A stretch of 32,000 nucleotides of DNA from Kineococcus radiotolerans SRS30216 = ATCC BAA-149 (GTDB lineage: Bacteria > Actinomycetota > Actinomycetes > Actinomycetales > Kineococcaceae): positions 150,001-182,000 of the forward strand of contig NC_009806.1 in the NCBI RefSeq assembly GCF_000017305.1. The letters are read 5' to 3'. A program made the translations under genes and the position numbers. The notes under the pieces were generated by a model. The model saw only the letters and a list, made by a program, of their open reading frames with translations. It was not told the DNA's origin and made no database searches. Below, piece by piece: positions 8,518 through 30,760 of this stretch. The first letter of the stretch is position 1; every line of letters starts with the position of its first letter.

Positions 8518-8568
8518 GCGTGTCGTTGTCGCTGCGCACGACACGCCCCGAAAACCTAGCACACTAGG
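8518..8568 (-). promoter_or_regulatory. Island promoter/leader cassette, copy B (variant)
   Basis: Minus strand CCTAGTGTGCTAGGTTTT (TGC-TAGGTT extended -10). It is followed by a perfect 9-bp hairpin GCGTGTCGT / GCGCAGCGACA / ACGACACGC at 8546-8518. Confidence 0.6.
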
Positions 8569-8651
8569 AGTTGGTGCAGGCGGGAGCGTGGCGTCGCCGT
8601 GGGGCCGGTTGACCCCTGATGGTGGTGCGGTGAACGGGTGGTCGGTGATCT

Positions 8652-9002
8652 TCAGATCTCGTTGCGTCGGGAGAAGGTGGCGCAGGCGACGAGCTGGGAG
8701 GACTCGCTGCCGGGGATGAAGCGGATGTCGTAGAAGCAGCCGCTGAGCTCGTCTAGCGCGGTCAGGGGAGGGGCTCCGCAGGACCTGGTGACCAAGTCGG
8801 TCATGTCCTTGGCGTTGACCCGCAGCTTCACGAACGGGGTCCTTGGTGTCAGTGCTTCACCTACGGGACACAGGTAGGCCAGGAAGAAGGAGCCTGGCTC
8901 CGAGGCCAGGCCCGTGCGCGCAGCCGCCCCGCCAGCGGATGTCGAGGTGCTCGCGGGCGGGTTAGCGCGCTCGCCGCGGCCGCGGCGGTCGAAGAGGCTC
9001 AT
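8652..9002 (-). CDS. Hypothetical protein (116 aa), translationally coupled to whiB
   Basis: The ATG overlaps the whiB stop (ATGA at 8999-9002). Sequence MSLFDRRGRG...FFLAYLCPVGE...CFYDIRFIPGSESSQLVACATFSRRNEI. The upstream part of the 235-aa track ORF is whiB shadow. Confidence 0.6.
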   Translation of the reverse strand: MSLFDRRGRGERANPPASTSTSAGGAAARTGLASEPGSFFLAYLCPVGEALTPRTPFVKLRVNAKDMTDLVTRSCGAPPLTALDELSGCFYDIRFIPGSESSQLVACATFSRRNEI

Positions 9003-9289
9003 CGTGTGCCCTCCCGCCGGTCCTTCTTCAGGCGCCGGCGCTCGCGCTCGGACAGCCCGCCCCAGATGCCGAAGCGCTCGTCGTGGGCCAGGGCGTACTC
9101 GAGGCACTGCTGGCGCACGTCGCAGGACTGGCACACCGCGCGCGCCGTCTTCGATGGTCCGCCCTTCTCGGGGAAGAAGACTTCGGGGTCGGTCTGGGCG
9201 CACAGTCCTGCCTCGCGCCAGGACGACGACGTGCCGTCGTCCGGCTCGGGGGTGGGGGTCTCGAAGCGGTGAAGTGTGTCGAGGGTCAT
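8999..9289 (-). CDS. whiB: WhiB-family (Wbl) Fe-S transcriptional regulator
   Basis: Four Cys in the C-x(n)-C-x2-C-x5-C pattern (CAQTDPEVFFPE...CQSCDVRQQC), then the GIWGGLSERERRRL turn and a basic tail. AGGAGG lies upstream of the ATG at 9289. Confidence 0.9.
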   Translation of the reverse strand: MTLDTLHRFETPTPEPDDGTSSSWREAGLCAQTDPEVFFPEKGGPSKTARAVCQSCDVRQQCLEYALAHDERFGIWGGLSERERRRLKKDRREGTR

Positions 9290-9320
9290 GACGTTGTCCT
9301 CCTGCTGGTTGGGTGGTGGC

Positions 9321-9370
9321 CGGTTCCGGTCGCTGTCGGTGCCGAGCAACTAGAACCATAGCACGCTAGG
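9321..9370 (-). promoter_or_regulatory. Island promoter/leader cassette, copy A
   Basis: Minus strand CCTAGCGTGCTATGGTTC, then hairpin CGGCACCG / ACAGCGAC / CGGAACCG, then CAACCAG and AGGAGG before the whiB ATG. Confidence 0.65.
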
Positions 9371-9632
9371 TCTGTCGTCGCAGCAATCCTCCTTGTGTCC
9401 TGTCTTACCCAGGTAGGTGCCGCTGACGGCACTGCTGTGACAGGTGCAGCACCCAATCTCGGCATTGGGTCGGCGGTGCACGGTCATCGGCCGGGTTGTC
9501 CGGTAGGGCCCTGTCGCTTCTACCGGCCAGACTGGCCAGCCCTCGCCTCTGCCGTGGTGGCCCGTCGTGAACGCCCCGTGTGCGCTGTCCACAGGCGGAT
9601 CGCGCCGTCACTCGAGGCGAAGGTCATCCGCG

Positions 9633-9875
9633 ATGATCGGCCGCGTGCAGAAGATGGCCGTCGAACAGTGGTGGACTCAGGCCGACCCCGTCACTCGGAT
9701 CCGTGCGCTGCGACTCGAGGCAGCGGACTTGCTGCCCGAAGACATGCAGGTCGACCTAGCGATGGCCGGAGTCACGGTGAGCGCCATCGGTTGCGGATGG
9801 GACCAGCAGCCTGAGGGGTACTGGGTGCCTCAAGTCCTGTGGGACTTCTTGCGAGCCCGTGACCACGACGACTGA
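9633..9875 (+). CDS. Hypothetical small protein (80 aa)
   Basis: ORF with reasonable G/C bias at third codon positions. Start uncertain (9633 or 9654). One of few plus-strand genes in the island. Confidence 0.5.
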   Translation: MIGRVQKMAVEQWWTQADPVTRIRALRLEAADLLPEDMQVDLAMAGVTVSAIGCGWDQQPEGYWVPQVLWDFLRARDHDD

Positions 9876-9968
9876 CCGGCCACTGGAGGGAAACCGCCGC
9901 GGGCTTCCCGACGGTCCGCGAAGACGTCAGGAAGTCCGCTTCATCCTCGATGGGAGAACCTGAGCAAC

Positions 9969-11018
9969 TCACTCGTTCGGGGCCGGAAGCGGCGGCTGGG
10001 AAGGAGGGACGGTTGTGAGAGCCGCCTTGGCCTCGCACCGGTCTGGTTCGTTCTCGGCCCACACCTGGTCGAAGTCGGGTCCGACCCAGGCCGTCACACA
10101 GGTCCGAGAACGAAGCATCAGCGCTGCTGTCGCGTAGCGCTCATCTGATGCCACCTGGATGCCGGCGGCGGACGGCGACGCGGTCGAGCTCAACGCCTGA
10201 CGGAGCCGCTCCTGAGCTGTCCACGACGCAGAAGCGTTGGCCCGCAATGCATCCTGCAAAGCGGCGACCTGCAGCTGCCCAACCCCCGACCACGGCCAGC
10301 CGATCTGATCGATCTGGCGCAGCGATGCAGCCTTGAGGTCAGAGCTGAGCTGCTCACCGGTGTTCAGATCAACATCGCTCGACCGGGCTGCACAATCACG
10401 AGCCCAGGCCGCGTTCCGCTTCTCCTTGCTCATGAAGGAGGCGGGGGAGAACAGGCCGTCGTCCAGGCTGGGCTTCGTGTCGGGATCCAAGGTGCTGACG
10501 CTGACGGTGCGGGCACCGTCGATCCCCTTCGTCGTAGCGGGAGTCACGGTCAAGAGCCGGCAGACGTGCACCGTCTCGGTGGGTTGCCACGAGTGCAGGG
10601 TGAGGCGCTGCCACCACTTGACGTCGTGATCGTTGGCCACCGTGAAGTCCAGCACCGCGCGAAATCCCCGCGCTGCAGCTGGAGCATCCGCGCCGCTGTA
10701 CCCCGGGGCCACGACTTCGGACAGCGACACGCTTGCGCCAGACGCGGCGAAGGTGGCCTGCTGATCCGCACCGCCCGCCCCGGCGACGACGCGTGCCGCG
10801 GCTGCCCCCGCCACCTCATCGAACCTGCTGGTCGCAGGCTCATGGAAGGACGCAGTCGGACCGGCGATGAAGGCGACGCCCGCGAGGAAGAGACCCACGG
10901 CTGCGGCGCCGGCCGCGACAAGAGCAGCGTCGCCCGAGACGCTAAGTCTGCTGCCTCGCTTCCGGTTCTGGGGGGCGGACTTGCTGAGGTCGGTTCGTTC
11001 CACGGGCTGATCGATCAC
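9969..11018 (-). CDS. Membrane-anchored, probably extracytoplasmic hypothetical protein
   Basis: N-terminal TM helix AALVAAGAAAVGLFLAGVAFIAG followed by a 300-aa soluble domain. The GTG start overlaps the upstream stop (GTGA at 11015-11018). Confidence 0.7.
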   Translation of the reverse strand: MIDQPVERTDLSKSAPQNRKRGSRLSVSGDAALVAAGAAAVGLFLAGVAFIAGPTASFHEPATSRFDEVAGAAAARVVAGAGGADQQATFAASGASVSLSEVVAPGYSGADAPAAARGFRAVLDFTVANDHDVKWWQRLTLHSWQPTETVHVCRLLTVTPATTKGIDGARTVSVSTLDPDTKPSLDDGLFSPASFMSKEKRNAAWARDCAARSSDVDLNTGEQLSSDLKAASLRQIDQIGWPWSGVGQLQVAALQDALRANASASWTAQERLRQALSSTASPSAAGIQVASDERYATAALMLRSRTCVTAWVGPDFDQVWAENEPDRCEAKAALTTVPPSQPPLPAPNE

Positions 11019-11365
11019 AAGTCTTCGGGTCCTTCCGTGCTCTTGACGTCACGACTCAGGTAGCGGTGGAGCATCTGCCGATCCAGTTCGCGGATCGGCT
11101 TGGTCACCGCCGCCGTTTCACGGGGGAGGTTGACGGCGTCGGGCCATCCGGTCAGGCTCACCGGCGCAGCGCCTCCAGGGCCACCGCCGGCCGCCGTGAC
11201 CGCCGGTTCTCTGAGGTGCCGGTCTTGATCGGTGCACTCGCTGCCGCTGGGAGCATGGTGGGTGAGGATGCGGTGGCCCATCGAGGACGCCTCGTCTCGT
11301 CTGCAGGGGGTGGTATCGATGGAAGGTGTCGGTGCAGGTGGCGGCGAGCGGTGCGCGCCGCTCAC
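11015..11365 (-). CDS. Hypothetical protein (116 aa)
   Basis: Start/stop overlaps at both ends (GTGA at 11362-11365 and at 11015-11018). Moderate G/C bias at third codon positions. Confidence 0.45.
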   Translation of the reverse strand: MSGAHRSPPPAPTPSIDTTPCRRDEASSMGHRILTHHAPSGSECTDQDRHLREPAVTAAGGGPGGAAPVSLTGWPDAVNLPRETAAVTKPIRELDRQMLHRYLSRDVKSTEGPEDL

Positions 11366-12588
11366 GTCGAGCGCGGTTCCTTGGCTGCCGCCTGAGCGGC
11401 GGACACCCCGTCGTCGTAATCGTCGATGTGGATCCCGCCCGTGGGGTCATAGCGGCCGCCGACGTGGTCGGGGTCGTAAGCCATGAAGACCACGTCGGGG
11501 CGCCCGCCGTTGTAGGCGGAGTAGGTCTCGTAGCTCCACCCGTCGGGGGCGTACTCGTCGTTCCACCGCAGCCTCGCAGTCGGGACGAAGCCGGCAGCGG
11601 AGTAGACGCGAGGGAGGACGGTGTCGAAGCAGTCCAGGCGTCGGCCCCCGGCGGCGACGGCGGTGGCGAGCATGGACTCAGCGCACCCGCGGTGCTCTCC
11701 GTCGGCGCGGGAGAACACCGAGACGATCTCGTCGCCCTTCAAGGCCACGCCGGAGCGGCCGTCGTCGGTGACCAGCAGGCGCATCTGGGCGTACTCCTGC
11801 TCGGAGTAGACGTAGACCGACGCCGCGTAGGGAGTGCTCGACGCCAGTGCCGCGATCGAGTCGCGGTAGGCGCCGGCGTCCGCTGGCGCGAGCTCGTGCA
11901 GGGTCGGAGTGGACTTGCCCTGGGCGCGCAGCCGTGCGGCGAGGTCTTCAGGCGGTTGGTGCACCGCGATGGGCTGCACCGATCGCCCGTCGATCAGAAG
12001 CCGATCAGGAGCGCCTCCTCGATCGCCCCGTCCGACCACTGCGCCTCGATCGTCTCCCGCTGCGCCTGGGGCAGCTCCGGGCGCCAGCCCTGCCGCCGCA
12101 GGAACGCCTCGCGCTCCTCCGGCGTCAGGCGACTGGCCGCGGGACGGTGCTGCGGGCTGGTGGGTTCGGTCACGGTCGTTTCCCTGCTCTCTGGTGTCGG
12201 TCGTGCTGCTGGCTGTGCTGCTGGTCGTGCCGCTGGGCGACTCGGTGCTGGTGGTCAGGGTGGAGGAAGACTCCGGCTGGGTCACCTCGGCGGCAGCAGC
12301 TCGCGCTGCAGCGCGTCGCTGGCGACCCTCCGCCAGGCGCTGCCGCAGGTGCTCCCGCTCTGCCGCTGTTCCCTCGACGTCGCCGTGCTCCAGTCGCTGC
12401 TGCAGGTCACGCTGCCCGGCGGGGGTGGAGTCGAAGTCCCGTTGGGCGTCCCGGTGACGCTGCAGCGCCTGCTGCCGTGACGGACCGTCGACACCGGCCT
12501 CCTCCAGCTCCTGTAGGCGCGCAGCAGCGGCCTCCAGGCGGTGCCGCCCATGGGCTGAGCAGCGCGGCCCAGGCTTCTTCTGACACAT
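11362..12588 (-). CDS. Long ORF with a C-terminal GNAT-like acetyltransferase domain. It is probably a composite of up to three coding segments (see finding).
   Basis: The ATG at 12588 (MCQKKPGPRCSAHG) has GAGGAAGG upstream. The C-terminal 205 aa (from the GTG at 11979) show a GNAT-like pattern (LLVTDDGRSGVALKGDEIVSVF...GCAESMLATAVAAGGRRLDCFDTVLPRVYSAAGFV). Between 12173 and 11994 the codon bias favours a different frame. Confidence 0.55.
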   Translation of the reverse strand: MCQKKPGPRCSAHGRHRLEAAAARLQELEEAGVDGPSRQQALQRHRDAQRDFDSTPAGQRDLQQRLEHGDVEGTAAEREHLRQRLAEGRQRRAAARAAAAEVTQPESSSTLTTSTESPSGTTSSTASSTTDTREQGNDRDRTHQPAAPSRGQSPDAGGARGVPAAAGLAPGAAPGAAGDDRGAVVGRGDRGGAPDRLLIDGRSVQPIAVHQPPEDLAARLRAQGKSTPTLHELAPADAGAYRDSIAALASSTPYAASVYVYSEQEYAQMRLLVTDDGRSGVALKGDEIVSVFSRADGEHRGCAESMLATAVAAGGRRLDCFDTVLPRVYSAAGFVPTARLRWNDEYAPDGWSYETYSAYNGGRPDVVFMAYDPDHVGGRYDPTGGIHIDDYDDGVSAAQAAAKEPRST

Positions 12589-12670
12589 CGTCTTCGCCCT
12601 TCCTCGGTCTCGGTTCACCTCGGTAGGTGCTCCTGGGCCCTCGGGTGTGACAGGAGAAGGCCGCGGCCCA

Positions 12671-13336: not shown

Positions 13337-13642
13337 TCAGCGGTCCTTAGGGAGAAGGACGGTGGTGACCGAACGGTCGGCCTCGGTGATGACCCAGAAG
13401 GTCTGGTCGTCGATGTCGTAGGCGGAGAACAGGAGCTGACCGCTGTGGACGGCCTGCTCGTTCATGGCGGCGTACTCCGCGCTGATGCTGCCCCAGTCTC
13501 CGCTGGCGTGGCGGGTGAGCAGTCCAGCGATGTCGGTGGGGCCGTGCTGGCGGGTGCGGAGCCAGCGGCGGACGCTGGCCGTCATCACCAGGTGTCCGGT
13601 CTGCACTCGCGGGGTCGGGGTGCTGGGGGCGGTGGCGTCCAC
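13337..13642 (-). CDS. Small conserved protein of a type seen on conjugative plasmids/ICEs (101 aa)
   Basis: RHASGDWGSISAEYAAMNEQAVHSGQLLFSAYDIDDQTFWVITEADRSVTTVLLPKD matches, from memory, the GDWG...N..A...G.R..SAY....IWIITEADRS.TT.LLP family. AGGAGG lies upstream of the GTG. Confidence 0.75.
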   Translation of the reverse strand: MDATAPSTPTPRVQTGHLVMTASVRRWLRTRQHGPTDIAGLLTRHASGDWGSISAEYAAMNEQAVHSGQLLFSAYDIDDQTFWVITEADRSVTTVLLPKDR

Positions 13643-13672
13643 GGTGTCCTCCTGGTTGATGGTGCCGGGTGA

Positions 13673-13718
13673 CGATCGGGTCGCTGTCCGATCGACCTGT
13701 AAACCATAGCACGCTAGG
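13673..13718 (-). promoter_or_regulatory. Island promoter/leader cassette, copy C
   Basis: Minus strand CCTAGCGTGCTATGGTTT, then a perfect 7-bp hairpin CGATCGG / ACAGCGAC / CCGATCG, then CAACCAGGAGG. Confidence 0.65.
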
Positions 13719-14864: not shown

Positions 14865-14901
14865 GAGGTGCCGGTCCCTTCGGGGGTTCTGGTTGGAGTG
14901 G

Positions 14902-14950
14902 GGTGCTGGAGGGTCGCTGTCCCCCAACACCTCAAACAATAGCACACTAT
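14902..14950 (-). promoter_or_regulatory. Island promoter/leader cassette, copy D
   Basis: Minus strand ATAGTGTGCTATTGTTT, then an 11-bp hairpin GGTGTTGGGGG / ACAGCGAC / CCTCCAGCACC, then CAACCAG. Confidence 0.65.
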
Positions 14951-15848: not shown

Positions 15849-16688
15849 TCAGTGGTCGTCGCGGTCCGCGTCGACGTACAGGTCGACGGTCAGGCGGGCC
15901 GGGCCGCGGCCGGACTCGCGTGCCCACTCCTCGACCATGCTGGCGGCGACTCCTTCGGCCTGCTCGATCGTCGTCGCGCCAGCCTCGGCCCACGTCATCG
16001 CGGCGACGTACGCACCGGAGTCGATCGGAAGGGTGTGCTCGGGGTCGTAGATGGCGATGACGCGGCGGTCCAGGTCGGGAAGTGTCCTGCCGTGCAGATC
16101 GTCCGCGACGGCGGGCTCGTCGTCCTCGCCGTCGTCCTCCTCTTCGTCGTCGTTTTCGTCCTCGTCCCAGCCCTCGGGCTCCGCACCCAGTCGCATGGCC
16201 TCAGGACTCACGCCGTCTTCGGCGGCAGCGAACTGGATGCCGTCATGGTGGGAGAGCGCGTCGATCAGGTCGCTTGCGGCATCGCCCCGCACGACGGTGA
16301 CGACGGTGATGTAGGCGGGTTCTCCATCCTGCGTGGCGTCCGGGTCATGCACGTCGTCCCCACATCCGTCCCCGGCCGTGGCATCCACCCAGGCGCCCTG
16401 CAGGTCCTCGTGGACGGTTGTGCCGCACCGCCCGCACGGCTTCTCGGGGGCCTGGCGGATCGTGACGGTCTCGGTGGAGGGGAGGGGCTCGCCGTTCTCG
16501 CGGAGCACGATCGTCCAGGTGTCGTCCCCGTCGTCGGTGATGGTCACCTCGTCGTAGGTGGTGGGCGGGTAGACCTCGGCGCGCATCTCACTCCACGCGG
16601 TGAGGGCGGCCTCGCGGGTGGGGTGCTGCTCTTCGTGGAGCGTCGCGTTGAACGTGTCCGCGTCCGAGACGGTGAGCGTGTGGGTCAT
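15849..16688 (-). CDS. Highly acidic hypothetical protein (279 aa) with a poly-D/E tract and a Cys cluster
   Basis: EPEGWDEDENDDEEEDDGEDDEPAVADD tract and many further D/E residues. CGRCG...GDGCGDDVHDP. First gene after promoter copy E, with GGAGG upstream of the ATG. Confidence 0.75.
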   Translation of the reverse strand: MTHTLTVSDADTFNATLHEEQHPTREAALTAWSEMRAEVYPPTTYDEVTITDDGDDTWTIVLRENGEPLPSTETVTIRQAPEKPCGRCGTTVHEDLQGAWVDATAGDGCGDDVHDPDATQDGEPAYITVVTVVRGDAASDLIDALSHHDGIQFAAAEDGVSPEAMRLGAEPEGWDEDENDDEEEDDGEDDEPAVADDLHGRTLPDLDRRVIAIYDPEHTLPIDSGAYVAAMTWAEAGATTIEQAEGVAASMVEEWARESGRGPARLTVDLYVDADRDDH

Positions 16689-16705
16689 GGTTTGCCTCCG
16701 GTGGA

Positions 16706-16749
16706 TGGGGGGTCGCTGTCCTCCAACGCAACAAACCATAGCACACTAG
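16706..16749 (-). promoter_or_regulatory. Island promoter/leader cassette, copy E
   Basis: Minus strand CTAGTGTGCTATGGTTT, then GCGTTGGAGG / ACAGCGAC / CCCCCATCC, then CGGAGG and the ATG. Confidence 0.65.
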
Positions 16750-16880: not shown

Positions 16881-17870
16881 TCATCGCCGCGGCGTGGTCA
16901 GCCGTTGCTCCAGCCAGCGCAACGTCTGCAGCCCCTGCTCGCGCTGCATCACGCGCAATCCAGGGATCGCCGCTACCTCCGGCAGGTGGCCCTCACGCCA
17001 GCACCGCCCCGCCAGACCGGCGAGAGCCACGTTCACGGCGTCGGCAGGAGCATCCGCCCAGCAAGAGGTCTCCAGCAGCTCCTGTGGGTCGTGCCCGTCC
17101 GCGGCCACGTCGGGAGCCAGGCGCACCAGGTCCAGCCAGCCCGGAGCACTCCACCGGTGCGTCCAGTCCACGATGCGCAACCGCCCACCCGGCTCGCGCA
17201 TCACGTTGTCGCGGCGCAGGTCCCCGTGGTGCAACGCCGCCCCAGCCATGAGGGTCGGCAGCCAGCGGCTCTCCAGCTCTGCCAGCTGCTCCACCGCCAC
17301 GTCGACGGGCAACGGACGCCCCCGCACGTGCTCGACGGTTACCGCGCCCGGGTCACCGGGGGCAGGACCGGCGGCCAACGCCTGCCATGTGCCCAGCAAC
17401 GGTGTGAACGCCTCGGCGAAGGGCGTGATCCCTGGCGTGGGGGAAGGGTCGAGGCGCGCACGCATCCGCTTCACCACCTTCAGCAGAGCTGGGAGGTCCT
17501 CACTGCGCCAGGTGCTGACGGTCGCACCGTCCAGCACCTCGTAGGCGGCGACCCGCCAGGAACCGCACGCCATTGATCCCCGCAGCTGCGGCCCGAGGTC
17601 GCCGACGACGTTGGCGAGCGCCGCACCCGCTTCGACGGCCTCACCCATCCCATCGCCGAGGGCAGCAGCCTTGATGAAGAGCCGCCGTCCGCGGGCGTCG
17701 ACGACGGTGGAGGCGATGGAGGCGGTGAACCCCGCCGCCGCAGGGAGCTCCACCACGGGTGGGCCGCCGAGGAAGCCGGCCACCGCCTCACGGACCTCGG
17801 CCGGTGCAGCGGCCAGGGTCGGTCGCAGGACAGCAGGACCCTCAGCTCTCACGACGCCATGCTCCCGCAC
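16881..17870 (-). CDS. Phosphotransferase-family (APH/choline-kinase-like) protein kinase-fold enzyme
   Basis: Catalytic HGDLRRDNVM and metal-binding IVDWTH motifs. The start may be the second GTG at 17852. Confidence 0.8.
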   Translation of the reverse strand: MREHGVVRAEGPAVLRPTLAAAPAEVREAVAGFLGGPPVVELPAAAGFTASIASTVVDARGRRLFIKAAALGDGMGEAVEAGAALANVVGDLGPQLRGSMACGSWRVAAYEVLDGATVSTWRSEDLPALLKVVKRMRARLDPSPTPGITPFAEAFTPLLGTWQALAAGPAPGDPGAVTVEHVRGRPLPVDVAVEQLAELESRWLPTLMAGAALHHGDLRRDNVMREPGGRLRIVDWTHRWSAPGWLDLVRLAPDVAADGHDPQELLETSCWADAPADAVNVALAGLAGRCWREGHLPEVAAIPGLRVMQREQGLQTLRWLEQRLTTPRR

Positions 17871-17985
17871 GCCTCCCCGGCGACTTCACGGTCCTCCCGC
17901 GTTGTGCGCGCTGCCGCGGGCAGTCGGTGACTTCACTCATCTGCCGATCTCCGGGCGGTCGAGCACCGTCCTCTAGGGTCGCCCG

Positions 17986-18645
17986 ATGGTTCAGCAGCAG
18001 TGCGTCGTCTTCGACCTCGACGACACCCTGGTGGCCTCCGACTCCTTCGCCCGCTTCCTGGCCTACCTGCTGCGCCGCTCCCCACCACGCCTGGCCTTGG
18101 TGGCACTCACTGCCCCGGGGTGGGTACTGCTCGGCGCCCGCCGCTCCAGTCGACTGCACGCGGATCGCCTCCTCACCTGGGCCGCCACCGTGGGCCTCAG
18201 CCCCGCCCGCTTCGAGGCGCTCCTGCGCACCTTCGCCGCCCAGCACGCCGCCGTCGAAGGCGGTCGACGCATCACCATCGCGCTGCAGCGCCTCCACGAG
18301 CACCTGGCCGCCGGGGACCGAGTCGTCATCGCCACCGCCTGTGCTGAGCCCTTAGCCCGGGAAGTCTGCAAGGTCCTGAACCTACGAGGCGTCGAGGTCG
18401 TTGCCAGCACCTTCACCGCCCACCGCTGGCGCCTGCCCCACGCCGCGCCCGCCCGCGGCCAGCAGAAGGTTCAGGCCTTGCAGGACGCCGGTATCCAGCT
18501 ACCCGTCGATCACGCCTACTCCGACAGCGTCAACGATCTGCCGCTGCTGCGCGCAGCACGCACCGCCCACCTGGTGCGCCCCTCGAGACGTCACCTGCCC
18601 CTGCTGCTGCGCGAGCTGGGCCCAGAAATTGAGGTCCTCAGATGA
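17986..18645 (+). CDS. HAD-superfamily hydrolase, subfamily IB-like
   Basis: Motif I VVFDLDDTLV and motif IV YSDSVNDLPLL. Confidence 0.8.
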   Translation: MVQQQCVVFDLDDTLVASDSFARFLAYLLRRSPPRLALVALTAPGWVLLGARRSSRLHADRLLTWAATVGLSPARFEALLRTFAAQHAAVEGGRRITIALQRLHEHLAAGDRVVIATACAEPLAREVCKVLNLRGVEVVASTFTAHRWRLPHAAPARGQQKVQALQDAGIQLPVDHAYSDSVNDLPLLRAARTAHLVRPSRRHLPLLLRELGPEIEVLR

Positions 18646-18897
18646 GTACCAGCCGCCGATGCCGCGTTCGGGGTCAGCCCGCGTTGTGTGCGGTCCCTAG
18701 CGGTTGGCGACGACCTCACATGCCGAAAGGCGCGCAATCGCGTGGACTGGGCAGCGCCCGCCCTGCGGGGACGAGATGGTCCAGCTTGGGGGGCGCCTTC
18801 GGGTACGTAGTCAATCAGGACAACAATGTGACGAAACCATTGCAACCCTCGGTCAGGCAGGCATACGTCGCGTCGAGATGGACAATGGGGTGGAAGG

Positions 18898-19686
18898 CTA
18901 AGCCTTCTCGTAGGTCGTGATTTCTAGGCCCAGGCCAGTGTTGTCCCTCCCGTAGACGCGAAGAACCGAATATCGACCGTCACTCGTGTAGACGCACATC
19001 CATGCGCCAGTCGCGAGGTCAGCTGCCTTAACGTAATTGAATGTGTATGTTCGAGTCGACGAACAGCTCTTGTAATCGGCCACAGTGTTGCCGAGGTAGG
19101 CAATCTTGGCTGGGCTGGCGATGCGGAGGTCACCGTCAACGTTGGTGTAAGCGATGTCCTGGGCTTCCTGCAGTAAAGGATTCCACCCATAAATAGATTC
19201 TTTTACGTCCAAGTCCAGCCCAGAATTGTCGGGGCGTAGGACAGCCTGACCGGTGTGCCGGATCGCAGGATCCATTGAGATGCTCTCTGGTGCAGTACCG
19301 ACGACAGCATCCACTTGGGCTTGCAAAGTTTCGTTCGCCGCGGTCAGGGATGAAACACGGGTCGTCAGGTCACCGACTTGGTTTTTAAGATCGTCGATGG
19401 TCGTGCGCTGGCCCGCGATGGTGTCGTCGCGCTGTTGAACAGTCTGATTGCGCTCGGTGAGCTGCGTCTGAAGCCGCGATGCGTCGTCAGACTTATCCTT
19501 AATCACCCAGCCGAGCACGATCACGATTACACCTAGCCCGGTGGCGACCCATTGGATCCACTTGCCGCTCTCGTCACGCATCCCCGCAATGCGTGCGTAC
19601 CAACGTGGTCGCGGCGCTGGCGTGGGAGGCGTGGGAGGCGTGGGGGTGGGGGTAGGTGTACCGCCCGTGCCGCCAGCTGTGCTCAT
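18898..19686 (-). CDS. Membrane-anchored coiled-coil protein with a C-terminal beta-rich domain, in a low-GC patch
   Basis: PT-rich N-terminus, TM helix WIQWVATGLGVIVIVLGWVI, and a heptad-like region LQTQLTERNQTVQQRDD...LTAANETLQAQV. CAGGAGC lies upstream of the ATG at 19686. Confidence 0.7.
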   Translation of the reverse strand: MSTAGGTGGTPTPTPTPPTPPTPAPRPRWYARIAGMRDESGKWIQWVATGLGVIVIVLGWVIKDKSDDASRLQTQLTERNQTVQQRDDTIAGQRTTIDDLKNQVGDLTTRVSSLTAANETLQAQVDAVVGTAPESISMDPAIRHTGQAVLRPDNSGLDLDVKESIYGWNPLLQEAQDIAYTNVDGDLRIASPAKIAYLGNTVADYKSCSSTRTYTFNYVKAADLATGAWMCVYTSDGRYSVLRVYGRDNTGLGLEITTYEKA

Positions 19687-19898
19687 CGTGCTCCTGTTGC
19701 TCCATGTGGGTGTGCTGAGCACACGGTAGGGGACGGGTCCGACGCGACCGCGCGGTTACGTGAATCTGCATACGAAGGTGGCAGCAGGTAGGCGGAAGCG
19801 GTCGCGAGGCATAACCGGACCGTAGCGGGACAGTTGCCCGCGTCCACCACATCGCCGGCGCGGCCGAGACGGCCTCCGGATGTCGTTGCAGTGGCAGG

Positions 19899-20399
19899 GT
19901 GGCTGCCATGTCGAAGCGGGTGCCGCTCAGGGGCGAGGAGAAGGCGAGCCTGCACATCAGCCTCGACCGTCACCGCGACGCCGTCTTGTGGAAGCTGGAA
20001 GGGCTCGACGAGGAGCAGTTGCGCCGGCCCATGACACCGACAGGCACCAACCTGCTGGGGCTGGTGAAGCACCTCGCCGGGGTCGAGTACGAGTGGCTGC
20101 CCAAGACCTACGGCCGAGCGACCGAGCCGCTGGAGACCGACGTCGTCGCCGACATGAACGCCGGCCCGCACGAGTCCACCGCCGACATCGTCGCTTTCTA
20201 TGGACGCGCCCGGGCCGCGTCCGATGCGGTGATCGCGGAGCATGGCATCGATGACGTCGGCACGGCGTGGTTCGGTGAGCAGGTCAGCCTGCGTCGGGTT
20301 CTCATCGGCTTGGTCGAGGAGACCGCTCGCCACGCCGGGCACATGGACATCCTGCGCGAGCTCATCGACGGAGCCATCGGAAGCCACCGGCCGGACTGA
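19899..20399 (+). CDS. DinB-superfamily protein (DUF664 / mycothiol-transferase-like)
   Basis: HISLDRHRDAVLWKLEGLDEEQL...NLLGLVKHLAGVE...ARHAGHMDILRELIDG, the His triad pattern of DinB-fold proteins. Confidence 0.8.
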   Translation: MAAMSKRVPLRGEEKASLHISLDRHRDAVLWKLEGLDEEQLRRPMTPTGTNLLGLVKHLAGVEYEWLPKTYGRATEPLETDVVADMNAGPHESTADIVAFYGRARAASDAVIAEHGIDDVGTAWFGEQVSLRRVLIGLVEETARHAGHMDILRELIDGAIGSHRPD

Positions 20400-22288: not shown

Positions 22289-22297
22289 GGTTCCTCC

Positions 22298-22347
22298 GGT
22301 AGATGGGGGGTCGCTGTCCTCCAACACCACAAACCATAGCACACTAG
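22298..22347 (-). promoter_or_regulatory. Island promoter/leader cassette, copy F
   Basis: Minus strand CTAGTGTGCTATGGTTT, then GGTGTTGGAGG / ACAGCGAC / CCCCCATCTACC. The core overlaps the palindrome CACACTA-G-TAGTGTG at 22340-22354. Confidence 0.7.
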
Positions 22348-24602: not shown

Positions 24603-24626
24603 GGTGGTCCTCCGTGGTGCGGCCCG

Positions 24627-24666
24627 GGGTGACGTCCTCCAACACCACAAACCATAGCACACTAGG
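24627..24666 (-). promoter_or_regulatory. Island promoter/leader cassette, copy G (degenerate hairpin loop)
   Basis: Minus strand CCTAGTGTGCTATGGTTTGTGGTGTTGGAGGAC is identical to copy F up to the loop. There ACAGCGAC is replaced by ACGTCAC. Confidence 0.6.
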
Positions 24667-26098: not shown

Positions 26099-26102
26099 AG
26101 GG

Positions 26103-26747
26103 TCAGGCCGGCACGCCGCTGGCGGCGCGCACCCGACGGGCCAGCTCGATCAGCTCGTGCTGGCGCGCGGACAGTTCGGCGCCGTCGGCGCAGTCGGCCA
26201 GAGTGCGGATGATGCCCTCGACGTCGCAGGGGGTCAGGTCGACGGGCGTGGCCTGCTCGGCGGCCACCGCCTCCAGGCGTGCGGCCTGAGCGGCGTACCG
26301 GGCCGAGGGCAGTTCCCCGCGTCGCATGGACTCGTTCTCGGCTTCGAGCGTCACGTACCGGGCGGCCACCTCGCGCAGGCGGGCAGCTTCGGTGGCGGGC
26401 TCGTCCGTCGTGATGGTGCCGCCGTACGGGGCGTACCGCTCGTCCCACAGGTTGTAGCTGTAGGTGGACCAGGTGACCGTTGTGTGCTCGGCCAGGTCGG
26501 GGCGGTGCTCGGCCGAGGAGGCGGTGAAGACACGGTTGACGCGGTAGGTCTCGGTCAGGACGGCGTCGATGCGGGCACGGACGTAGTAGGCGCGGGGGGA
26601 GTCGGCGGGAACGGGGTGGCCGTTGATGGTGACGACCTCGACCTCGTAGGTGCCGGGCAGGATCGTGTACTTGTCCCACCAGGACGCGGTGGCGAGGGTG
26701 CGGTCCACGTACTCCGTCGCGGCGGGGATGGTCAGTGTGAGCGTCAT
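26103..26747 (-). CDS. Hypothetical protein (214 aa)
   Basis: CAGGAGGATCCCG lies before the ATG at 26747. First gene after copy H. Confidence 0.7.
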   Translation of the reverse strand: MTLTLTIPAATEYVDRTLATASWWDKYTILPGTYEVEVVTINGHPVPADSPRAYYVRARIDAVLTETYRVNRVFTASSAEHRPDLAEHTTVTWSTYSYNLWDERYAPYGGTITTDEPATEAARLREVAARYVTLEAENESMRRGELPSARYAAQAARLEAVAAEQATPVDLTPCDVEGIIRTLADCADGAELSARQHELIELARRVRAASGVPA

Positions 26748-26790
26748 CGGGATCCTCCTGGTCGGGGGTTCTGTGCGTCCTTCACGGCTT

Positions 26791-26808
26791 AAACCATAGC
26801 ACACTAGG
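26791..26808 (-). promoter_or_regulatory. Island promoter core, copy H (no canonical leader hairpin)
   Basis: Minus strand CCTAGTGTGCTATGGTTT. The leader is divergent. Confidence 0.55.
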
Positions 26809-26917
26809 CATGAGGTAGGTAGGTGGACTTGGTTCGTGCTTCTGGCGGGCGCGCCGGCTCGGTCGGCGCCTCAGGGGATGCGCGGAGGTGAGCTGGCTCC
26901 GGCGGACCCGCGCGTGT

Positions 26918-27106
26918 TCAGGTCGCCGGTTCGATGGCGGTGACGTTGTAGGAGGTGGTGCGAGAGCTGATTTCCTCGCCCGCCAGGTGCTGGTCGTCGG
27001 CTTCGTCCTCTGAGTCGGCCTCGACCTCGAAGACGATGACCTCGGATCTCTCGACGACGACGCGGTACTTCACGGGGGAACGCCCTTCACTGGAGGTGGC
27101 GGGCAC
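26918..27106 (-). CDS. Small acidic hypothetical protein (62 aa)
   Basis: VKYRVVVERSEVIVFEVEADSEDEADDQHLAGEE. Plausible beta-strand-rich acidic protein. Confidence 0.5.
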   Translation of the reverse strand: MPATSSEGRSPVKYRVVVERSEVIVFEVEADSEDEADDQHLAGEEISSRTTSYNVTAIEPAT

Positions 27107-27161
27107 CGTGGGTGGCGGTCCATGGCGCTCGCGGCCGACGTCGTGCGGGTGCTTGGGTGGC

Positions 27162-27195
27162 GGGTCGGGCGGCGGGGGGAGTCGCCGCCCGACCC
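27162..27195 (-). terminator. Perfect 13-bp GC-rich hairpin after the first gene of operon I
   Basis: GGGTCGGGCGGCG-GGGGGAGT-CGCCGCCCGACCC, between the stop at 27294 and the next start at 27106. Confidence 0.45.
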
Positions 27196-27293
27196 GTTCC
27201 GCCGTCCTTCAGCTGTCGGCGGTGGAAGGGGGGGCTTGGAGCGGGTGCACCGGGGACGGTGGTGCCGCCCCCGGCGCAGCAGTCGTGGGCTGG

Positions 27294-27680
27294 CTACAGC
27301 TCCCCGGCCAGCTGCGGCCGGTACTGGTAGGCCCCGCAGGCGGCGAGGCTCTCGAAGTCCTCACCGACGGCGTCGGCCAGGTGGTGCAGGCTGGCCAGGA
27401 GGTCGGTCAGGGCCGTCCCGAGGTCGACGTCGGCTCCGGTCTGCTCCCAGAATGCCCGGAGCGCTACCGCTGCCGCTCCGGCGCGCCGGGTGTTGTCGTG
27501 GGCGACGTCCTCGGCGCTCGTGCCGTTGCGGAAGCGTCCGTCGCCGTCGGCGAGGGTGAGCGCGGCGGTGAGGTCCGTCAGGTTCGCCTCGACGGTGAGG
27601 GGCAGGCTGGCGGGGGCGATGACGTCGGGGGTGACGTCAGGGGTGACGTGGGCAGCGGGAGTGGAAGTGGTGGTGGACAT
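27294..27680 (-). CDS. Hypothetical protein (128 aa)
   Basis: CCGGAGGTACCGGCC lies before the ATG at 27680. First gene after copy I. Confidence 0.7.
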   Translation of the reverse strand: MSTTTSTPAAHVTPDVTPDVIAPASLPLTVEANLTDLTAALTLADGDGRFRNGTSAEDVAHDNTRRAGAAAVALRAFWEQTGADVDLGTALTDLLASLHHLADAVGEDFESLAACGAYQYRPQLAGEL

Positions 27681-27705
27681 GGCCGGTACCTCCGGTGCTG
27701 GTTGG

Positions 27706-27761
27706 TCTCGTGGTGTCGACGGGGTCGCTGTCCCGCCAACACGAGAACCATAGCACACTAG
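27706..27761 (-). promoter_or_regulatory. Island promoter/leader cassette, copy I
   Basis: Minus strand CTAGTGTGCTATGGTTC, then an extended hairpin TCTCGTGTTGGCGGG / ACAGCGAC / CCCGTCGACACCACGAGA, then CAACCAG. Confidence 0.7.
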
Positions 27762-27837
27762 TAGCACGTGAGGAAGAGGTTGGCCTCGACGTCATGCGGT
27801 CACGCCGCTGCCGCGCCCGTGTGCGCGGAGGTGCACG

Positions 27838-28185
27838 TCACCGGCGCGAGATCGCCCGCACAGCGTCGGCCCGTCCCGCCTCAGTCGGCGCGCCCCAGTC
27901 GTAGGCCGGCAGAGCGGGCATGGTCTCCCCGTCGGCGTCGAAGTTGATCCAGTGGATGTCCTCGCCCAGGGAGCGGGCGTAACGGCTGACGGCGAGGAGG
28001 TTGGGGAAGCCCGCGGCCCGCATCGCCTCGTCGTGCTCCTCGACGTCGTCGTGCTGCACGTTCACGAAGAGCCCGTACTCGTGGGCGATGACGCGCGGGC
28101 CGTCGAGCTGGAAGACGGACTCAGCGGTGTCGACTTCGCGCTGGGTGAGGTGGCAGGTGGACAGGTCCAGGTACTTCGCGATCAC
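27838..28185 (-). CDS. Hypothetical protein (115 aa)
   Basis: MIAKYLDLSTCHLTQREVD...HEYGLFVNV...IHWINFDADGETMPALPAYDW. GGAGGAG lies upstream of the GTG. Loosely reminiscent of a mobile-element family (DUF5983-like), unverified. Confidence 0.65.
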   Translation of the reverse strand: MIAKYLDLSTCHLTQREVDTAESVFQLDGPRVIAHEYGLFVNVQHDDVEEHDEAMRAAGFPNLLAVSRYARSLGEDIHWINFDADGETMPALPAYDWGAPTEAGRADAVRAISRR

Positions 28186-28326
28186 GGGTGACTCCTCCGG
28201 CGAGGGCTGGGCAGGTGGTATGAGGGCTGGCGCACCCGTGGGGGCCCACAGGGCGCGGTGGGTCGAGGCAGGGAGGGGCGCCGCGTCGGGGCCGGCGCCC
28301 GCCTCCGGCGCTCCGGCAGGGGGGGC

Positions 28327-28632
28327 TCAGGACGTGCCCATCTCGGGGTACAGGCGGCGCACCTGGGCGTCGGCCCATGTGCGCCGGTCCTCGGCGTCGT
28401 CGGCCTCGTCGAGGGCGTAGGCCCAGTGCTCGGTGCCACGGGTCCGAAGCCCCGCGCGCACCGCGAGCTCGGCTCCGGCGCGGCTAATCTGGGCCTCAGG
28501 GCGCTCACCGTAGTCGGTGGCCGCGTCGTAGGACTCAGCGGCCAGGATGTTGACCAGGTCCAGGCGGTCCAGGGCTACCCGCACCTGAACCGTGACCATG
28601 TGGCGCCCATTGCGGCGCAGGGTGGGCTGCAT
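28327..28632 (-). CDS. Hypothetical protein (101 aa)
   Basis: GAGGAAGC lies before the ATG. Good codon bias. Confidence 0.6.
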   Translation of the reverse strand: MQPTLRRNGRHMVTVQVRVALDRLDLVNILAAESYDAATDYGERPEAQISRAGAELAVRAGLRTRGTEHWAYALDEADDAEDRRTWADAQVRRLYPEMGTS

Positions 28633-28708
28633 GCTTCCTCGTCTGGTCGGGGGCTGGTCCGCTAGCTGCTGGCGGTGTAGTGGACGGTCGAGAGCGTCGA
28701 GGTTGGGC

Positions 28709-29005
28709 TCAGCCGACCACCTCCCGCACGGGCACGTAGACGGCCAGGCCCCCGACGTGCAGGCTGGAGAAGGTGCCCTGTGCCATGGGCACCAGGCCGT
28801 CGTATCCCTGGGGGTACTGGGCCTTCAGCGCGAACGCCTCAGCCTCGGTGTAGCCGGGGAAAAGCACCCCGCCTGCCTTCTCGACCTTGCGGGCTTCTGC
28901 CGCGGTGACGGCCTGCGACTCGAGGCCGGCCTCGAAGGTGGTGTCGCCCTTGACGCCATAGGCGCTGTGCTGAGCGACGGTGTACTGGTCCTTGGCACTG
29001 CTCAT
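28709..29005 (-). CDS. Hypothetical protein (98 aa)
   Basis: ORF with good codon bias and GAGAGGA upstream. Confidence 0.6.
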   Translation of the reverse strand: MSSAKDQYTVAQHSAYGVKGDTTFEAGLESQAVTAAEARKVEKAGGVLFPGYTEAEAFALKAQYPQGYDGLVPMAQGTFSSLHVGGLAVYVPVREVVG

Positions 29006-29101
29006 GTGCTGCTGTCCTCTCGGGTGGTTGCGTGGGTTCGTTCTGCTGCCGCTGGCGGTCGGCGCCGGTGCGACCAGCTCGCGGTCTGCGGGCGGGCCGT
29101 G

Positions 29102-29341
29102 TCAGAGCCGGGTGAGCGAGCTGGTCGGGATGATCGTGACGTCGCCGTCGGCGCGGATGACGCGGGTGTGCGGGGTGAGGTTGGGGGTGCGCCGGGTGCA
29201 GCGGCGGGTGTGCTGGTGCCGCGAGAGGTAGGTGCTGTCGCTGGCGCAGCCGACGTACTCGACCCGGTCCGGGACGATGAACTTCTGGTCGGTGGCGATG
29301 GTGACCGTCTCGCCGGTGGTGGTCCAGGTGGCCTGTTCCAT
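29102..29341 (-). CDS. Hypothetical protein (79 aa)
   Basis: CACGGAGGCACCCG lies before the ATG. First gene after copy J. Confidence 0.6.
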   Translation of the reverse strand: MEQATWTTTGETVTIATDQKFIVPDRVEYVGCASDSTYLSRHQHTRRCTRRTPNLTPHTRVIRADGDVTIIPTSSLTRL

Positions 29342-29379
29342 CGGGTGCCTCCGTGTCGCGGTGCCTTCAACTTGTGGCT

Positions 29380-29396
29380 AAACCATAGCACACTAT
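29380..29396 (-). promoter_or_regulatory. Island promoter core, copy J (no canonical leader hairpin)
   Basis: Minus strand ATAGTGTGCTATGGTTT. It shares the upstream flank GTACATAGTGTGC with copy D. Confidence 0.55.
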
Positions 29397-29466
29397 GTAC
29401 GCGAGAGGTACACGGATCCCGTGACGTCGCATCCCAGAAGCCGCAGCGCACGGAGACGGCGCCGGA

Positions 29467-30051
29467 CTACAGCTCCAGAGCGGTGACACGAGCTCGGCGT
29501 CGACCGCGGTGATCGCGGTCGACGACCACCCGCAGCGCCATTGCCGTGAACCGAGCGCCTGTCCGCAGGATGACGGCCGCCTCGTAGACACCGGCCCCGA
29601 CGTGGTGCAGGTGCACGCTCTTGACGACCGGCGTCACCAGTCCCGCCATGGGCTGAGCGACCCCAGGAGCGCACAGCCGGCGCTCGCGGGCGGCCAGGAG
29701 CTGCTGACGCCGCGAGACCGTCTGGTAGACCTCCGGACTGCACCAGCGCAGGAGCTGCTGGCGGGGGCGGCGGCTGGCGAAGACCCCCAGGTAGACGATC
29801 ATCCATCGCCGCACCCAGTGCTCGACCTCTTCCATGTCCTGAGACGCCACGCCGGCCCCCGGTGGACGAGCAGGCGCCACGTCCATCGAGAGCACGAACT
29901 GCCCCTCGCACTGGGAAGCCTCGCCGAGCGGAGACCTCTCCTCACGAGGTGCTCTGCGGTGGACGTCGCTGAAGACGACCTGTCGGCTCTCCTCCCGCTG
30001 CTTGTCCTGCTGCCTGACGTACTGGCGAGCTGTGCTCTGGATCGTGTCCAC
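29467..30051 (-). CDS. Rv3235-like (DUF6459-type) actinobacterial protein
   Basis: The C-terminus VHLHHVGAGVYEAAVILRTGARFTAMALRVVVDRDHRGRRRARVTALEL matches the pattern I recall for the Rv3235 family. GGGAG lies upstream of the GTG. Confidence 0.65.
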   Translation of the reverse strand: MDTIQSTARQYVRQQDKQREESRQVVFSDVHRRAPREERSPLGEASQCEGQFVLSMDVAPARPPGAGVASQDMEEVEHWVRRWMIVYLGVFASRRPRQQLLRWCSPEVYQTVSRRQQLLAARERRLCAPGVAQPMAGLVTPVVKSVHLHHVGAGVYEAAVILRTGARFTAMALRVVVDRDHRGRRRARVTALEL

Positions 30052-30193
30052 GAGCTACTCCCTGGATCGGTTGGATCGGTGCCGAAGCCGGCTGTCTGGG
30101 GCGCGGCCCACGGCCGCGGAGCGGGCTGGAGAGCCACGCAGAGCCGTGAGGCCGGAAGCACGCGCCTCCTGGCCCCACGAGGGAGCGAGAAGG

Positions 30194-30682
30194 TCAGACC
30201 GCGGCGTGCGCGTCGCGCCGCTGGAAGGACCAGGTAGCGGCCTCGTCGTAGCCGGGGAGCCGGTTGATGGCGGCCCGCTCGATGGCAGCAACCCAGGTCG
30301 CCGCTCGGCTCGAGGCCCAGCCCGGGTGCTCGCAGCTCTGGTAGACGTAGCCGCGCGCGGCCTTCAGGATGGCGACGGTGACGTCAGCGCCCAGGCCGGC
30401 GAGCTCTGCGGGCCGCACCGGCTGCCAGCGGTAGGAGAAGACGAGCGCCGCGTACTCGGCGCGCTCGGAGTCCTCCATCGAGGAGTAGCGGTGCTGGACG
30501 CTGAGCACGTTCTCGGCCAGCAACTCCTGGCCCAGTGCATCGGCGCTGATGACGCGGGAGTCGAGGCACACAGTGTCGATGGGGTTCGTCCCCGGCGCGT
30601 GGTGGTAGGCGATGACCTGCCACTGGCGAGCGAAGGTCACCAGCAGGTCGATGTGGTCGTTCGACTGCACGTAGGCGCTCAC
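30194..30682 (-). CDS. Hypothetical protein (162 aa)
   Basis: AGAGGAGC lies upstream of the GTG at 30682. First gene after copy K. Confidence 0.7.
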   Translation of the reverse strand: MSAYVQSNDHIDLLVTFARQWQVIAYHHAPGTNPIDTVCLDSRVISADALGQELLAENVLSVQHRYSSMEDSERAEYAALVFSYRWQPVRPAELAGLGADVTVAILKAARGYVYQSCEHPGWASSRAATWVAAIERAAINRLPGYDEAATWSFQRRDAHAAV

Positions 30683-30709
30683 GGTGGTGCTCCTCTATCG
30701 GTACCGGTT

Positions 30710-30760
30710 GTGTGCTGGCCGGGTCGCTGTCCGTCCAACACTCAAACCATAGCACACTAG
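30710..30760 (-). promoter_or_regulatory. Island promoter/leader cassette, copy K
   Basis: Minus strand CTAGTGTGCTATGGTTT, then GTGTTGGACGG / ACAGCGAC / CCGGCCAGCACAC. Confidence 0.7.

Follow-up and report, generated by a model that had tools for sequence, protein, structure and literature searches.

The linear plasmid pKRAD01 of the actinomycete Kineococcus radiotolerans SRS30216 carries an array of small genes, about 23 kb in length, in which one short control cassette recurs eleven times. The array was analysed within a 32-kb stretch of this plasmid (hereafter, the window) and is probably a regulon of the plasmid that comprises some 35 small genes in 11 units, each served by an extended -10 promoter for the host RNA polymerase and by a common hairpin in the 5'-leader that would act as a shared handle for stability or regulation. 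The hairpin itself is a selected structure.

A search of the window for CTAGYGTGCTATGGTT, with up to three mismatches allowed, returns 11 core sites, all of them intergenic and on the minus strand. Seven of the 11 are perfect and the worst has two mismatches, whereas only 0.12 sites are expected by chance and none of 100 dinucleotide-preserving shuffles reaches 11. The coordinates and the single orientation given for these repeats in a preliminary description of the sequence are right to within 1-2 nucleotides (nt); its account of the cassette, correct for the core, overlooked the conserved downstream hairpin with loop ACAGCGAC, which makes the cassette longer than the 17-mer described. Upstream of the core, the 11 aligned copies display zero conservation. 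From 5' to 3', each cassette is comprised of a 16-nt block (CTAGTG-TGcTATGGT-T), a stem-loop, a C/A-rich block where the leader is long, and a Shine-Dalgarno (SD)-like motif with a start codon, the latter pair lying 40-71 nt 3' of the -10 hexamer in all cassettes, as anticipated in the preliminary description. The leaders fall into two classes, long (60-71 nt; A, B, C, D, I and K) and short (40-48 nt; E, F, G, H and J), and in the short class the SD directly follows the hairpin. The C/A-rich block occurs at a fixed distance in the six long-leader copies: the recurring CAACCAG noted earlier is recovered as AACCAG, 56-60 nt from the start of the core, in A, B, C, D and I, and reads AACCGG in K. 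The eleven cassettes, with the genes headed by six of them (protein lengths in amino acids, aa), are as follows.

8490-8567, minus strand: cassette A, core 8552-8567, -10 variant TAGGTT, AACCAG block, 9-bp hairpin GCGTGTCGT[GCGCAGCGACA]ACGACACGC; distances assume the ATG at 8489, a start backed by homologues; heads the genes for a 228-aa helix-turn-helix (HTH) protein and an RNase_T exonuclease
9290-9369, minus strand: cassette B, core 9354-9369, hairpin CGG..CCG[ACAGCGAC]CGG..CCG, AACCAG block, ATG 9289; heads a WhiB-like gene and a 116-aa gene
13643-13717, minus strand: cassette C, core 13702-13717, a different stem in GTCGATCGG[ACAGCGAC]CCGATCGTC, AACCAG block, GTG 13642; heads the ITEADRS-motif gene
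14865-14950, minus strand: cassette D, core 14935-14950, -10 variant TATTGT, hairpin GGTGTTGGGGG[ACAGCGAC]CCTCCAGCACC, AACCAG block, ATG 14864
16689-16749, minus strand: cassette E, core 16734-16749, imperfect hairpin with loop ACAGCGAC, short leader, ATG 16688; heads an acidic 279-aa gene
22289-22347, minus strand: cassette F, core 22332-22347, imperfect hairpin GGTGTTGGAGG[ACAGCGAC]CCCCCATCTACC, short leader, ATG 22288
24603-24665, minus strand: cassette G, perfect core 24650-24665, loop mutated to ACGTCAC, short leader, ATG 24602
26748-26807, minus strand: cassette H, perfect core 26792-26807, hairpin and loop degenerate, short leader, ATG 26747
27681-27761, minus strand: cassette I, core 27746-27761, perfect 11-bp hairpin GTGTTGGCGGG[ACAGCGAC]CCCGTCGACAC, AACCAG block, ATG 27680
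29342-29396, minus strand: cassette J, core 29381-29396 (ATAGTGTGCTATGGTT), degenerate hairpin (CCGCGAC), short leader; heads genes for 79-, 98-, 101- and 115-aa (DUF5983) proteins
30683-30760, minus strand: cassette K, core 30745-30760, -10 hexamer TATGGT 30746-30751, hairpin at about 30711-30740, GTGTTGGACGG[ACAGCGAC]CCGGCCAGCAC, GTG start 30682; heads 162-aa and 194-aa (DUF6459) genes

The core matches the consensus of an extended -10 element, T-15 G-14 n T-12 A-11 nnn T-7, and the 11-copy alignment bears out the earlier view that it is accompanied by no conserved -35. The -10 sequence is TGCTATGGT in nine copies, TGCTATTGT in D and TGCTAGGTT in A. The pattern TGNTANNNT matches the window 12 times, with 11 minus-strand matches that are all cassettes and one on the plus strand, and all 12 are intergenic, just upstream of a gene start and in the orientation of that gene. 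The lone plus-strand match (30778-30786) lies 7 nt before the ATG of a divergent gene for a 175-aa protein that stands back to back with cassette K. Six additional bases, at -21 to -16, are conserved upstream of the TG, which is more than RNA polymerase should require; together with the near-identity of the block across copies, this suggests an operator overlapping the cassette promoter. Control of the cassettes by an extracytoplasmic function (ECF) sigma factor was considered and rejected, as a core devoid of a conserved -35 fits a housekeeping extended -10.

A second conserved block of the alignment, GGACAGCGACCC, located about 14 nt 3' of the core, forms the top of the stem-loop. This structure starts approximately 6-10 nt after the core, at predicted +1 to +5, and has a stem of 7-13 bp; if TATGGT is the -10, the hairpin thus begins a few bases from the 5' end of the transcript. 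The stem is variable in sequence yet complementary, and the loop, ACAGCGAC, is nearly invariant. In most copies the hairpin is the unconstrained minimum-free-energy structure predicted by RNAfold, with imperfect forms in E and F and a degenerate hairpin or loop in G, H and J.

The pairing was assessed on 27 cassettes drawn from the window and from related metagenome contigs. A loop motif [AG]G[CU]GA within a hairpin closed by at least 5 bp is present in 23 of the 27, compared to 3.1 expected from flank shuffles. When the arms were swapped between cassettes, mean folding energy rose from -12.8 kcal/mol for own arms to -6.9 +/- 0.7 kcal/mol, a value as low as that of the own arms being reached in none of 5000 permutations; within the class of stems bearing GTGTTGG, the corresponding figures were -13.3 and -10.7 +/- 0.8, with 2 of 5000 permutations as low. 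In a gap-free subset of nine copies, biased because these copies were picked for folding, 86.9% of cells are paired, four pairs have changed on both sides, and the covariation score of 0.24 (against 0.153) is matched by one of 500 shuffles and beats all slid registers. Orthologous cassettes provide clear examples of compensation: the arms of cassette A, GCGTGTCGT/ACGACACGC in the window, are GCGCGTCGT/ACGACGCGC in a relative, where a U-A pair has become C-G, and CCG[..]CGG of cassette B corresponds to CCUG[..]CAGG (DNA CCTG). A covariance model built on the hairpin matches at cassettes and nowhere else, with no stand-alone copies, and in both promoter families described below the hairpin is always found just 3' of the -10. 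Membership in a known Rfam family was rejected, since a scan of the whole window at E<=1 gave a single unrelated match below threshold (Scr3920; 26 bits against a gathering score of 88); a tRNA scan of the window gave no matches. A complement to the loop, sought as a partner in cis or in trans, is not enriched downstream.

The cassette is shared with a small set of related DNA molecules. Multi-copy matches to its two-block pattern in species-representative genomes and metagenomes are confined to related plasmid-like contigs. Among these, a 105-kb metagenome contig, Ga0160427_10000055 (also Ga0160428_1000105; analysed as loci L040 and L053), encodes a homologue of the first array gene with 68% identity and has eight cassettes, all in gene orientation and all within a homologous array, with none in the 10 kb upstream and none in the 10 kb downstream of it. 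The gene content of this contig is a mosaic of that of the window, with the first gene, DUF5983, the DprA winged helix, units D and C, a 205-aa protein, WhiB, the 228-aa protein and the exonuclease held in common, and the cassette is constant throughout. Of these units, a second large relative (L054; 56 kb) retains just the final pair, that of WhiB followed by that of the 228-aa protein and the exonuclease, and both have their cassette; L034 has two cassettes adjoining a homologue of the divergent 175-aa gene, and L038 has one. Related contigs thus have the same cassette solely inside the homologous array. In a more distant relative with 61% identity (L042), the promoter block is replaced by CTTGCG-N-GGTGCGGGTGTTAGTAT, again an extended -10 and present in three copies, and hairpins with the same loop core are kept, namely GGGG-A-CGG[AAGCGA]CCG-CCCC and GGGG-A-CAC[ACAGCGA]GTG-CCCC, the two stems being mutually compensatory. 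A hairpin that outlasts replacement of its promoter and has no Rfam counterpart is a candidate for a new RNA motif.

Outside this set, the array DNA has no near-identity match among PLSDB plasmids and INPHARED phages except for a WhiB fragment, and scans of IMG/VR with the 15-mer and with the hairpin gave single chance matches in unrelated low-GC contigs. The two-block pattern gave five chance matches in GTDB species representatives and none in Kineococcus, the window's own region evidently lying outside the searched set. Homologues of a unit-D gene occur in similar small-gene arrays on plasmids with MOBP relaxases of Mycobacterium avium and Gordonia, but the hairpin, sought in these arrays and in a distant array of Streptomyces rimosus, is absent from all three. 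The S. rimosus array (L047; JOCQ01000004, 9700-20100) has a junction motif of its own, TAGGTACGAC, in eight copies on the gene strand that often overlap a stop codon or lie just before an ATG, as well as a duplicated 160-nt intergenic block (9740-9900 and 11344-11503) with a hairpin that resembles a terminator; small-gene arrays of this kind may in general have repeated motifs at their junctions. Two further features of the 105-kb contig concern its array. A 1426-aa gene on the opposite strand (L053 3238-7518, minus strand), absent from the window and with a faint match to STAND NTPases, interrupts the array and is possibly defence-type cargo. At L040 6093-8672, 1.3-4 kb upstream of the first cassette, there are genes for a GerE/LuxR regulator, a 386-aa protein and, 3 kb upstream, an ECF-like sigma factor, and the pKRAD01 counterpart of this region is beyond the window edge.

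The proteins of the window are ABS06114 to ABS06153. Those that bear on the control or content of the array are listed here, together with the one block that departs from its layout.

7195-7806, minus strand: RNase_T exonuclease (Pfam)
7803-8489, minus strand: 228-aa protein with a C-terminal HTH (phrog_686, 1.5e-5)
8999-9289, minus strand: WhiB-like protein (PF02467, 6e-26)
13337-13642, minus strand: ITEADRS-motif protein (translation)
15849-16688, minus strand: acidic 279-aa protein (translation)
16881-20399, both strands: cassette-free block with APH-like (minus), HAD (plus), 92-aa (plus), low-GC coiled-coil (minus) and MST/DinB (plus) genes
29467-30051, minus strand: DUF6459 (Rv3235-like) protein, 194 aa (Pfam)
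30194-30682, minus strand: 162-aa product of the first gene
30778-31321, plus strand: divergent 175-aa gene with its own extended -10, TGGTAGTTT (30778-30786), and an ATG at 30794

The gene content proposed in the preliminary description is thus partly recovered, in that WhiB, the exonuclease and the Rv3235-like protein are found by Pfam and the acidic and ITEADRS proteins in the translations, whereas Pfam at E<=0.01 finds no GNAT domain or DUF3560 in the window; further matches in the window are to DUF5983, DUF6884 and a DprA winged helix. Also present are all six of the start/stop overlaps of 4 nt listed there, which read GTGA or ATGA. Its unidirectional array holds for the 11 cassettes, all of which are on one strand, but the array is interrupted, as the block at 16881-20399 has three plus-strand genes and no cassette. 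This block is insertion-like, and a low-GC segment within it (0.61; approximately 19000-20000) overlaps the coiled-coil open reading frame (ORF) at 18898-19722.

Three proteins are candidate regulators: the 228-aa HTH protein, which is conserved in all relatives, the WhiB-like protein and the 175-aa protein. The gene for the last of these lies beside the first cassette in three lineages, and in the relative L040 (9888-9905) it likewise has an extended -10, TGATAGGTT. In both cases the -10 ends 6-7 nt before the ATG, so that a leaderless mRNA is predicted. No domain was found in the 175-aa protein, and a homologue search gave near-identical sequences only. Searches of the candidate proteins against solved structures, NCBIfam, PHROGs and, at lax thresholds, Pfam added only phrog_686. 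The 162-aa product of the first gene has a mostly helical predicted fold (predicted local distance difference test, pLDDT, 95) and an invariant YQSCEHP-W motif.

In the regulon proposed here, host RNA polymerase with its primary sigma factor would start at every cassette and, judging from the consensus, would not need a -35. The 11 transcription units would take in about 35 small genes, mostly of unknown function, and every mRNA would begin with the common hairpin, which could shield the 5' end from 5'-end-dependent RNases and whose invariant loop could give one trans-acting factor a handle on all units. The operator that may overlap the promoter would be read by the 228-aa HTH, WhiB-like or 175-aa protein, and because the first two would themselves be made from cassettes, a feedback loop is possible. 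Such a shared operator design would lead to co-ordinated expression and to a transient burst on entry into a new cell; the single regulator and synchronous burst put forward in the preliminary description are accordingly plausible when seen by analogy with ArdK of plasmid R388. A more far-reaching proposal, which we hold only tentatively and at somewhat less than an even chance, is that the ACAGCGAC-loop hairpin is a new cis-regulatory element of actinobacterial plasmids whose loop is read by a plasmid-encoded factor, as 5'-terminal RNA or possibly as extruded or single-stranded DNA, such that about 35 establishment or anti-defence genes are switched on or off together. Promoters would be interchangeable around the hairpin core, because L042 has swapped its promoter block and kept the hairpin.

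Several observations weigh against the regulon of leader hairpins. The promoter and the 5'-terminal position of the hairpin are assigned from consensus and geometry. The strand is not told apart by the pairs themselves: 12 positions are of the G.U type and 8 of the A.C type, and the antisense folds about as well as the sense, so that G.U wobbles were dropped as proof of an RNA strand and it is the geometry, with the hairpin 3' of the -10, that carries the RNA reading. The structure may also be a cruciform or a single-stranded form of the DNA. In G, H and J the hairpin or loop is degenerate, which implies that it is dispensable for a unit. The cassettes share ancestry as paralogues or orthologues and are not independent, and the apparent significance of the tests is inflated as a result. 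Finally, a search for an RNA-binding or clearly matching DNA-binding regulator tied none to the cassettes, the model of the 162-aa product has no fold match in the PDB, and the 228-aa HTH protein gave a poor structure model and likewise no PDB match.

One rival is a reading mainly at the DNA level, in which the 16-nt block is an asymmetric operator through which a plasmid repressor silences or roadblocks the array, in the manner of cluster A mycobacteriophage stoperators or the repeated operators of RK2 and R388, the inverted repeat is a second operator, and the likeness to a promoter is partly incidental or the functions overlap. Seven of the 11 copies share an identical block, conservation reaches -21, the block is strictly coupled to gene orientation, the hairpin is without strand bias, HTH and WhiB-like proteins are encoded in the array with a divergent gene at its head, and R388 offers a precedent (PMC3937220). 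Nonetheless, the block fits the extended -10 perfectly, and every motif of this kind in the window is placed at a gene start. The arms of the inverted repeat differ wholly among A, B, C and the GTGTTGG class and are still complementary, which a sequence-reading dimer would not tolerate, and the conserved centre, ACAGCGAC, is not palindromic; a dimeric operator is therefore unlikely as an explanation of the hairpin, and the repressor-site reading as a whole, although it deserves to be kept in view, is unlikely too. A further rival concerns transfer of the plasmid. If the array were a conjugative leading region, the hairpins could fold in the incoming strand as single-stranded promoters or priming sites (Frpo and ssi of F-like plasmids), and early anti-defence and establishment genes would be expressed ahead of synthesis of the complementary strand. 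In favour are the small unknown genes of the array, with their largely unidirectional layout, and the ability of either strand to fold; structure-specific recognition typically involves a conserved loop on a variable stem, and small-gene arrays are known from leading regions (PMC11541004). The homologues of one gene on MOBP-relaxase plasmids, taken with this precedent, keep the leading-region idea alive by analogy. The hairpin itself is only about 30 nt, and because the -10 block lies outside it with no conserved complementary partner, no duplex promoter would form in single-stranded DNA. Many actinomycete plasmids, moreover, move double-stranded DNA by means of TraB. A leading region adjoins oriT or the nic site, is oriented to enter the recipient first and belongs to an element with a relaxase; neither the window nor 40 kb of relatives showed a relaxase, an oriT or a type IV secretion system gene, and single-stranded elements of this kind are quite improbable here.

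The mosaic gene content of window and relatives, with the cassette constant at unit boundaries, could instead be taken to indicate recombination or junction elements, that is, attC-like sites or homology linkers that shuffle gene modules with expression as a side effect; integron integrases do recognise folded sites with variable stems. Mosaicism is, however, found inside units too, Pfam finds no gene for an integrase or recombinase within the array or next to it, the element stands ahead of the first gene with no copy behind the last, and a full promoter consensus lies at a fixed distance from the SD and start codon, all of which render this account very improbable. A selfish dispersed repeat with no role in expression, of the repetitive extragenic palindrome (REP) or miniature inverted-repeat transposable element (MITE) type, would likewise be short, intergenic and endowed with a hairpin. 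It is hardly credible for copies that have one orientation and a fixed distance to a gene start, have unrelated flanks with neither terminal inverted repeats nor target duplications, and occur in a single array both in the window and in relatives, the multi-copy matches of the two-block scan being in related plasmid-like contigs only. The preferred reading remains the regulon with a common leader hairpin.

The setting of the array accords with a plasmid, and the preliminary description, which had read the DNA as other than chromosome, is correct on this point: the window belongs to pKRAD01, a 182,572-bp linear plasmid (CP000751), and the array is unmentioned in the genome paper (PMC2587704). 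Its statement that no structural or transfer genes are present was too strong, as a prepilin peptidase gene is found at 3-896 and a Tad-like cluster adjoins the array in relatives. After the array of the two large relatives (L053 and L054) come genes for a Rep-like HTH_36 protein, a prepilin peptidase and TadE/T2SSF, and the array has these neighbours in the window too. The alternative of a prophage early region, also raised there, is unsupported: the window has no phage genes, and one gene only, that of the 162-aa product, has distant homologues in phage-like contigs (L045 and L048). Beyond the array, the window holds several local features. Four copies of a 27-bp palindrome with 11-nt arms, CACGGGGTGCAATGGCTGCACCCCGTG, occur at 2404-2593 in a weak-coding stretch inside the ORF at 1856-3178, the N-terminus of which is the Rep-like HTH_36 domain; they resemble iterons or operator sites, and none was found in L053 and L054 with up to 6 mismatches allowed. 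Just 3' of the prepilin peptidase gene, at 937-1080, about 10 copies of the 12-nt unit GGCTCGCACGCA form a tandem repeat, and a full-length dxr gene (DXP reductoisomerase; 3175-4422) is located on the plasmid between the Rep-like gene and a CAP-domain gene.

Expression of large actinobacterial plasmids and their establishment in new hosts are poorly understood, and in this array one module of 80 nt seems to unite some 35 genes of unknown function in a single regulon, with the cassette delimiting transcription units. The cassette would provide a compact, probably strong, -35-free promoter and leader for high-GC hosts, and its loop and 16-mer are usable as bait for the regulator. If the array is an entry or establishment region, the leading-region concept would reach the linear plasmids of actinomycetes.

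Among known systems, the closest parallels in regulatory design are found on conjugative plasmids of other hosts. In R388, five promoters in the region for stable maintenance, namely PardC, Porf7, Porf12, Porf14 and ArdK's own Pssb, are repressed by ArdK in a negative feedback loop, and conjugation is followed by an overshoot of expression (PMC3937220). R388 with ArdK, StbA and KorA and RK2 with KorA and KorB thus resemble the array in placing several maintenance or establishment operons under one control sequence. They differ in that here the whole promoter, and not the operator alone, is near-identical across 11 units, and in that the host is an actinomycete, the plasmid linear and the repressors candidates only. 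We know of no counterpart of the conserved 5'-leader hairpin in R388 or RK2. The start-associated sequences (SAS) and extended start-associated sequences (ESAS) of cluster K mycobacteriophages are oriented repeats at gene starts whose function is unknown, and ESAS have conserved 17-bp arms around a variable spacer (PMC3203893). They are like the cassettes in being short motifs of an actinobacterial mobile element, repeated many times in one orientation just 5' of where genes begin, in some cases with an inverted repeat, and conserved in relatives (PMC3203893). The cassette, in which the arms vary and the loop is conserved, is the opposite of ESAS, and the sequences are unrelated. SAS reportedly lie a few bases before the start codon and overlap the ribosome-binding site, whereas the cassette core lies 40-71 nt away from that codon and has the sequence of a -10.

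The stoperators of cluster A phages, sites for L5 gp71, are asymmetric 13-16-bp sequences found in many copies, intergenic and oriented with transcription. The cassette block is similarly asymmetric, multi-copy and coupled to orientation; stoperators, by contrast, are roadblocks for a phage repressor and are not promoter-like, whereas the block matches the extended -10 consensus and belongs to a plasmid, and the window yielded no structural, integrase or repressor genes of a phage. Small 5' hairpins that act on all downstream genes of a unit, by a sequence-specific loop or by their place at the extreme 5' end, are familiar from lambda nut boxB with N, the LoaP leader hairpin and the stabilising ompA leader. 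The present hairpin has no sequence similarity to these and no Rfam match, and occurs in eleven copies rather than one or two. In comparison with nut and N specifically, there are no terminators to override within units, since window scans for terminators are at background level with none between or inside units, and no N-like or NusG-like protein is found by Pfam in the window. In integron attC arrays the tyrosine recombinase IntI is expected beside the array and an attC site behind each gene; here no integrase domain was found, and the element stands before the first gene and not after the last one. The Frpo-type single-stranded promoters of conjugative leading regions resemble the cassettes in being structured elements that recur in a plasmid array of small early genes, largely in one direction (PMC11541004). 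Frpo itself is a long imperfect hairpin that rebuilds both the -35 and -10 boxes, whereas the 30-nt hairpin described here leaves the -10 outside and provides no conserved complement to it. Plasmid and phage regulons with repeated control sequences are therefore known already; what is new is a module of promoter and leader hairpin that the linear plasmid of an actinomycete employs 11 times and that is conserved in uncultured relatives.

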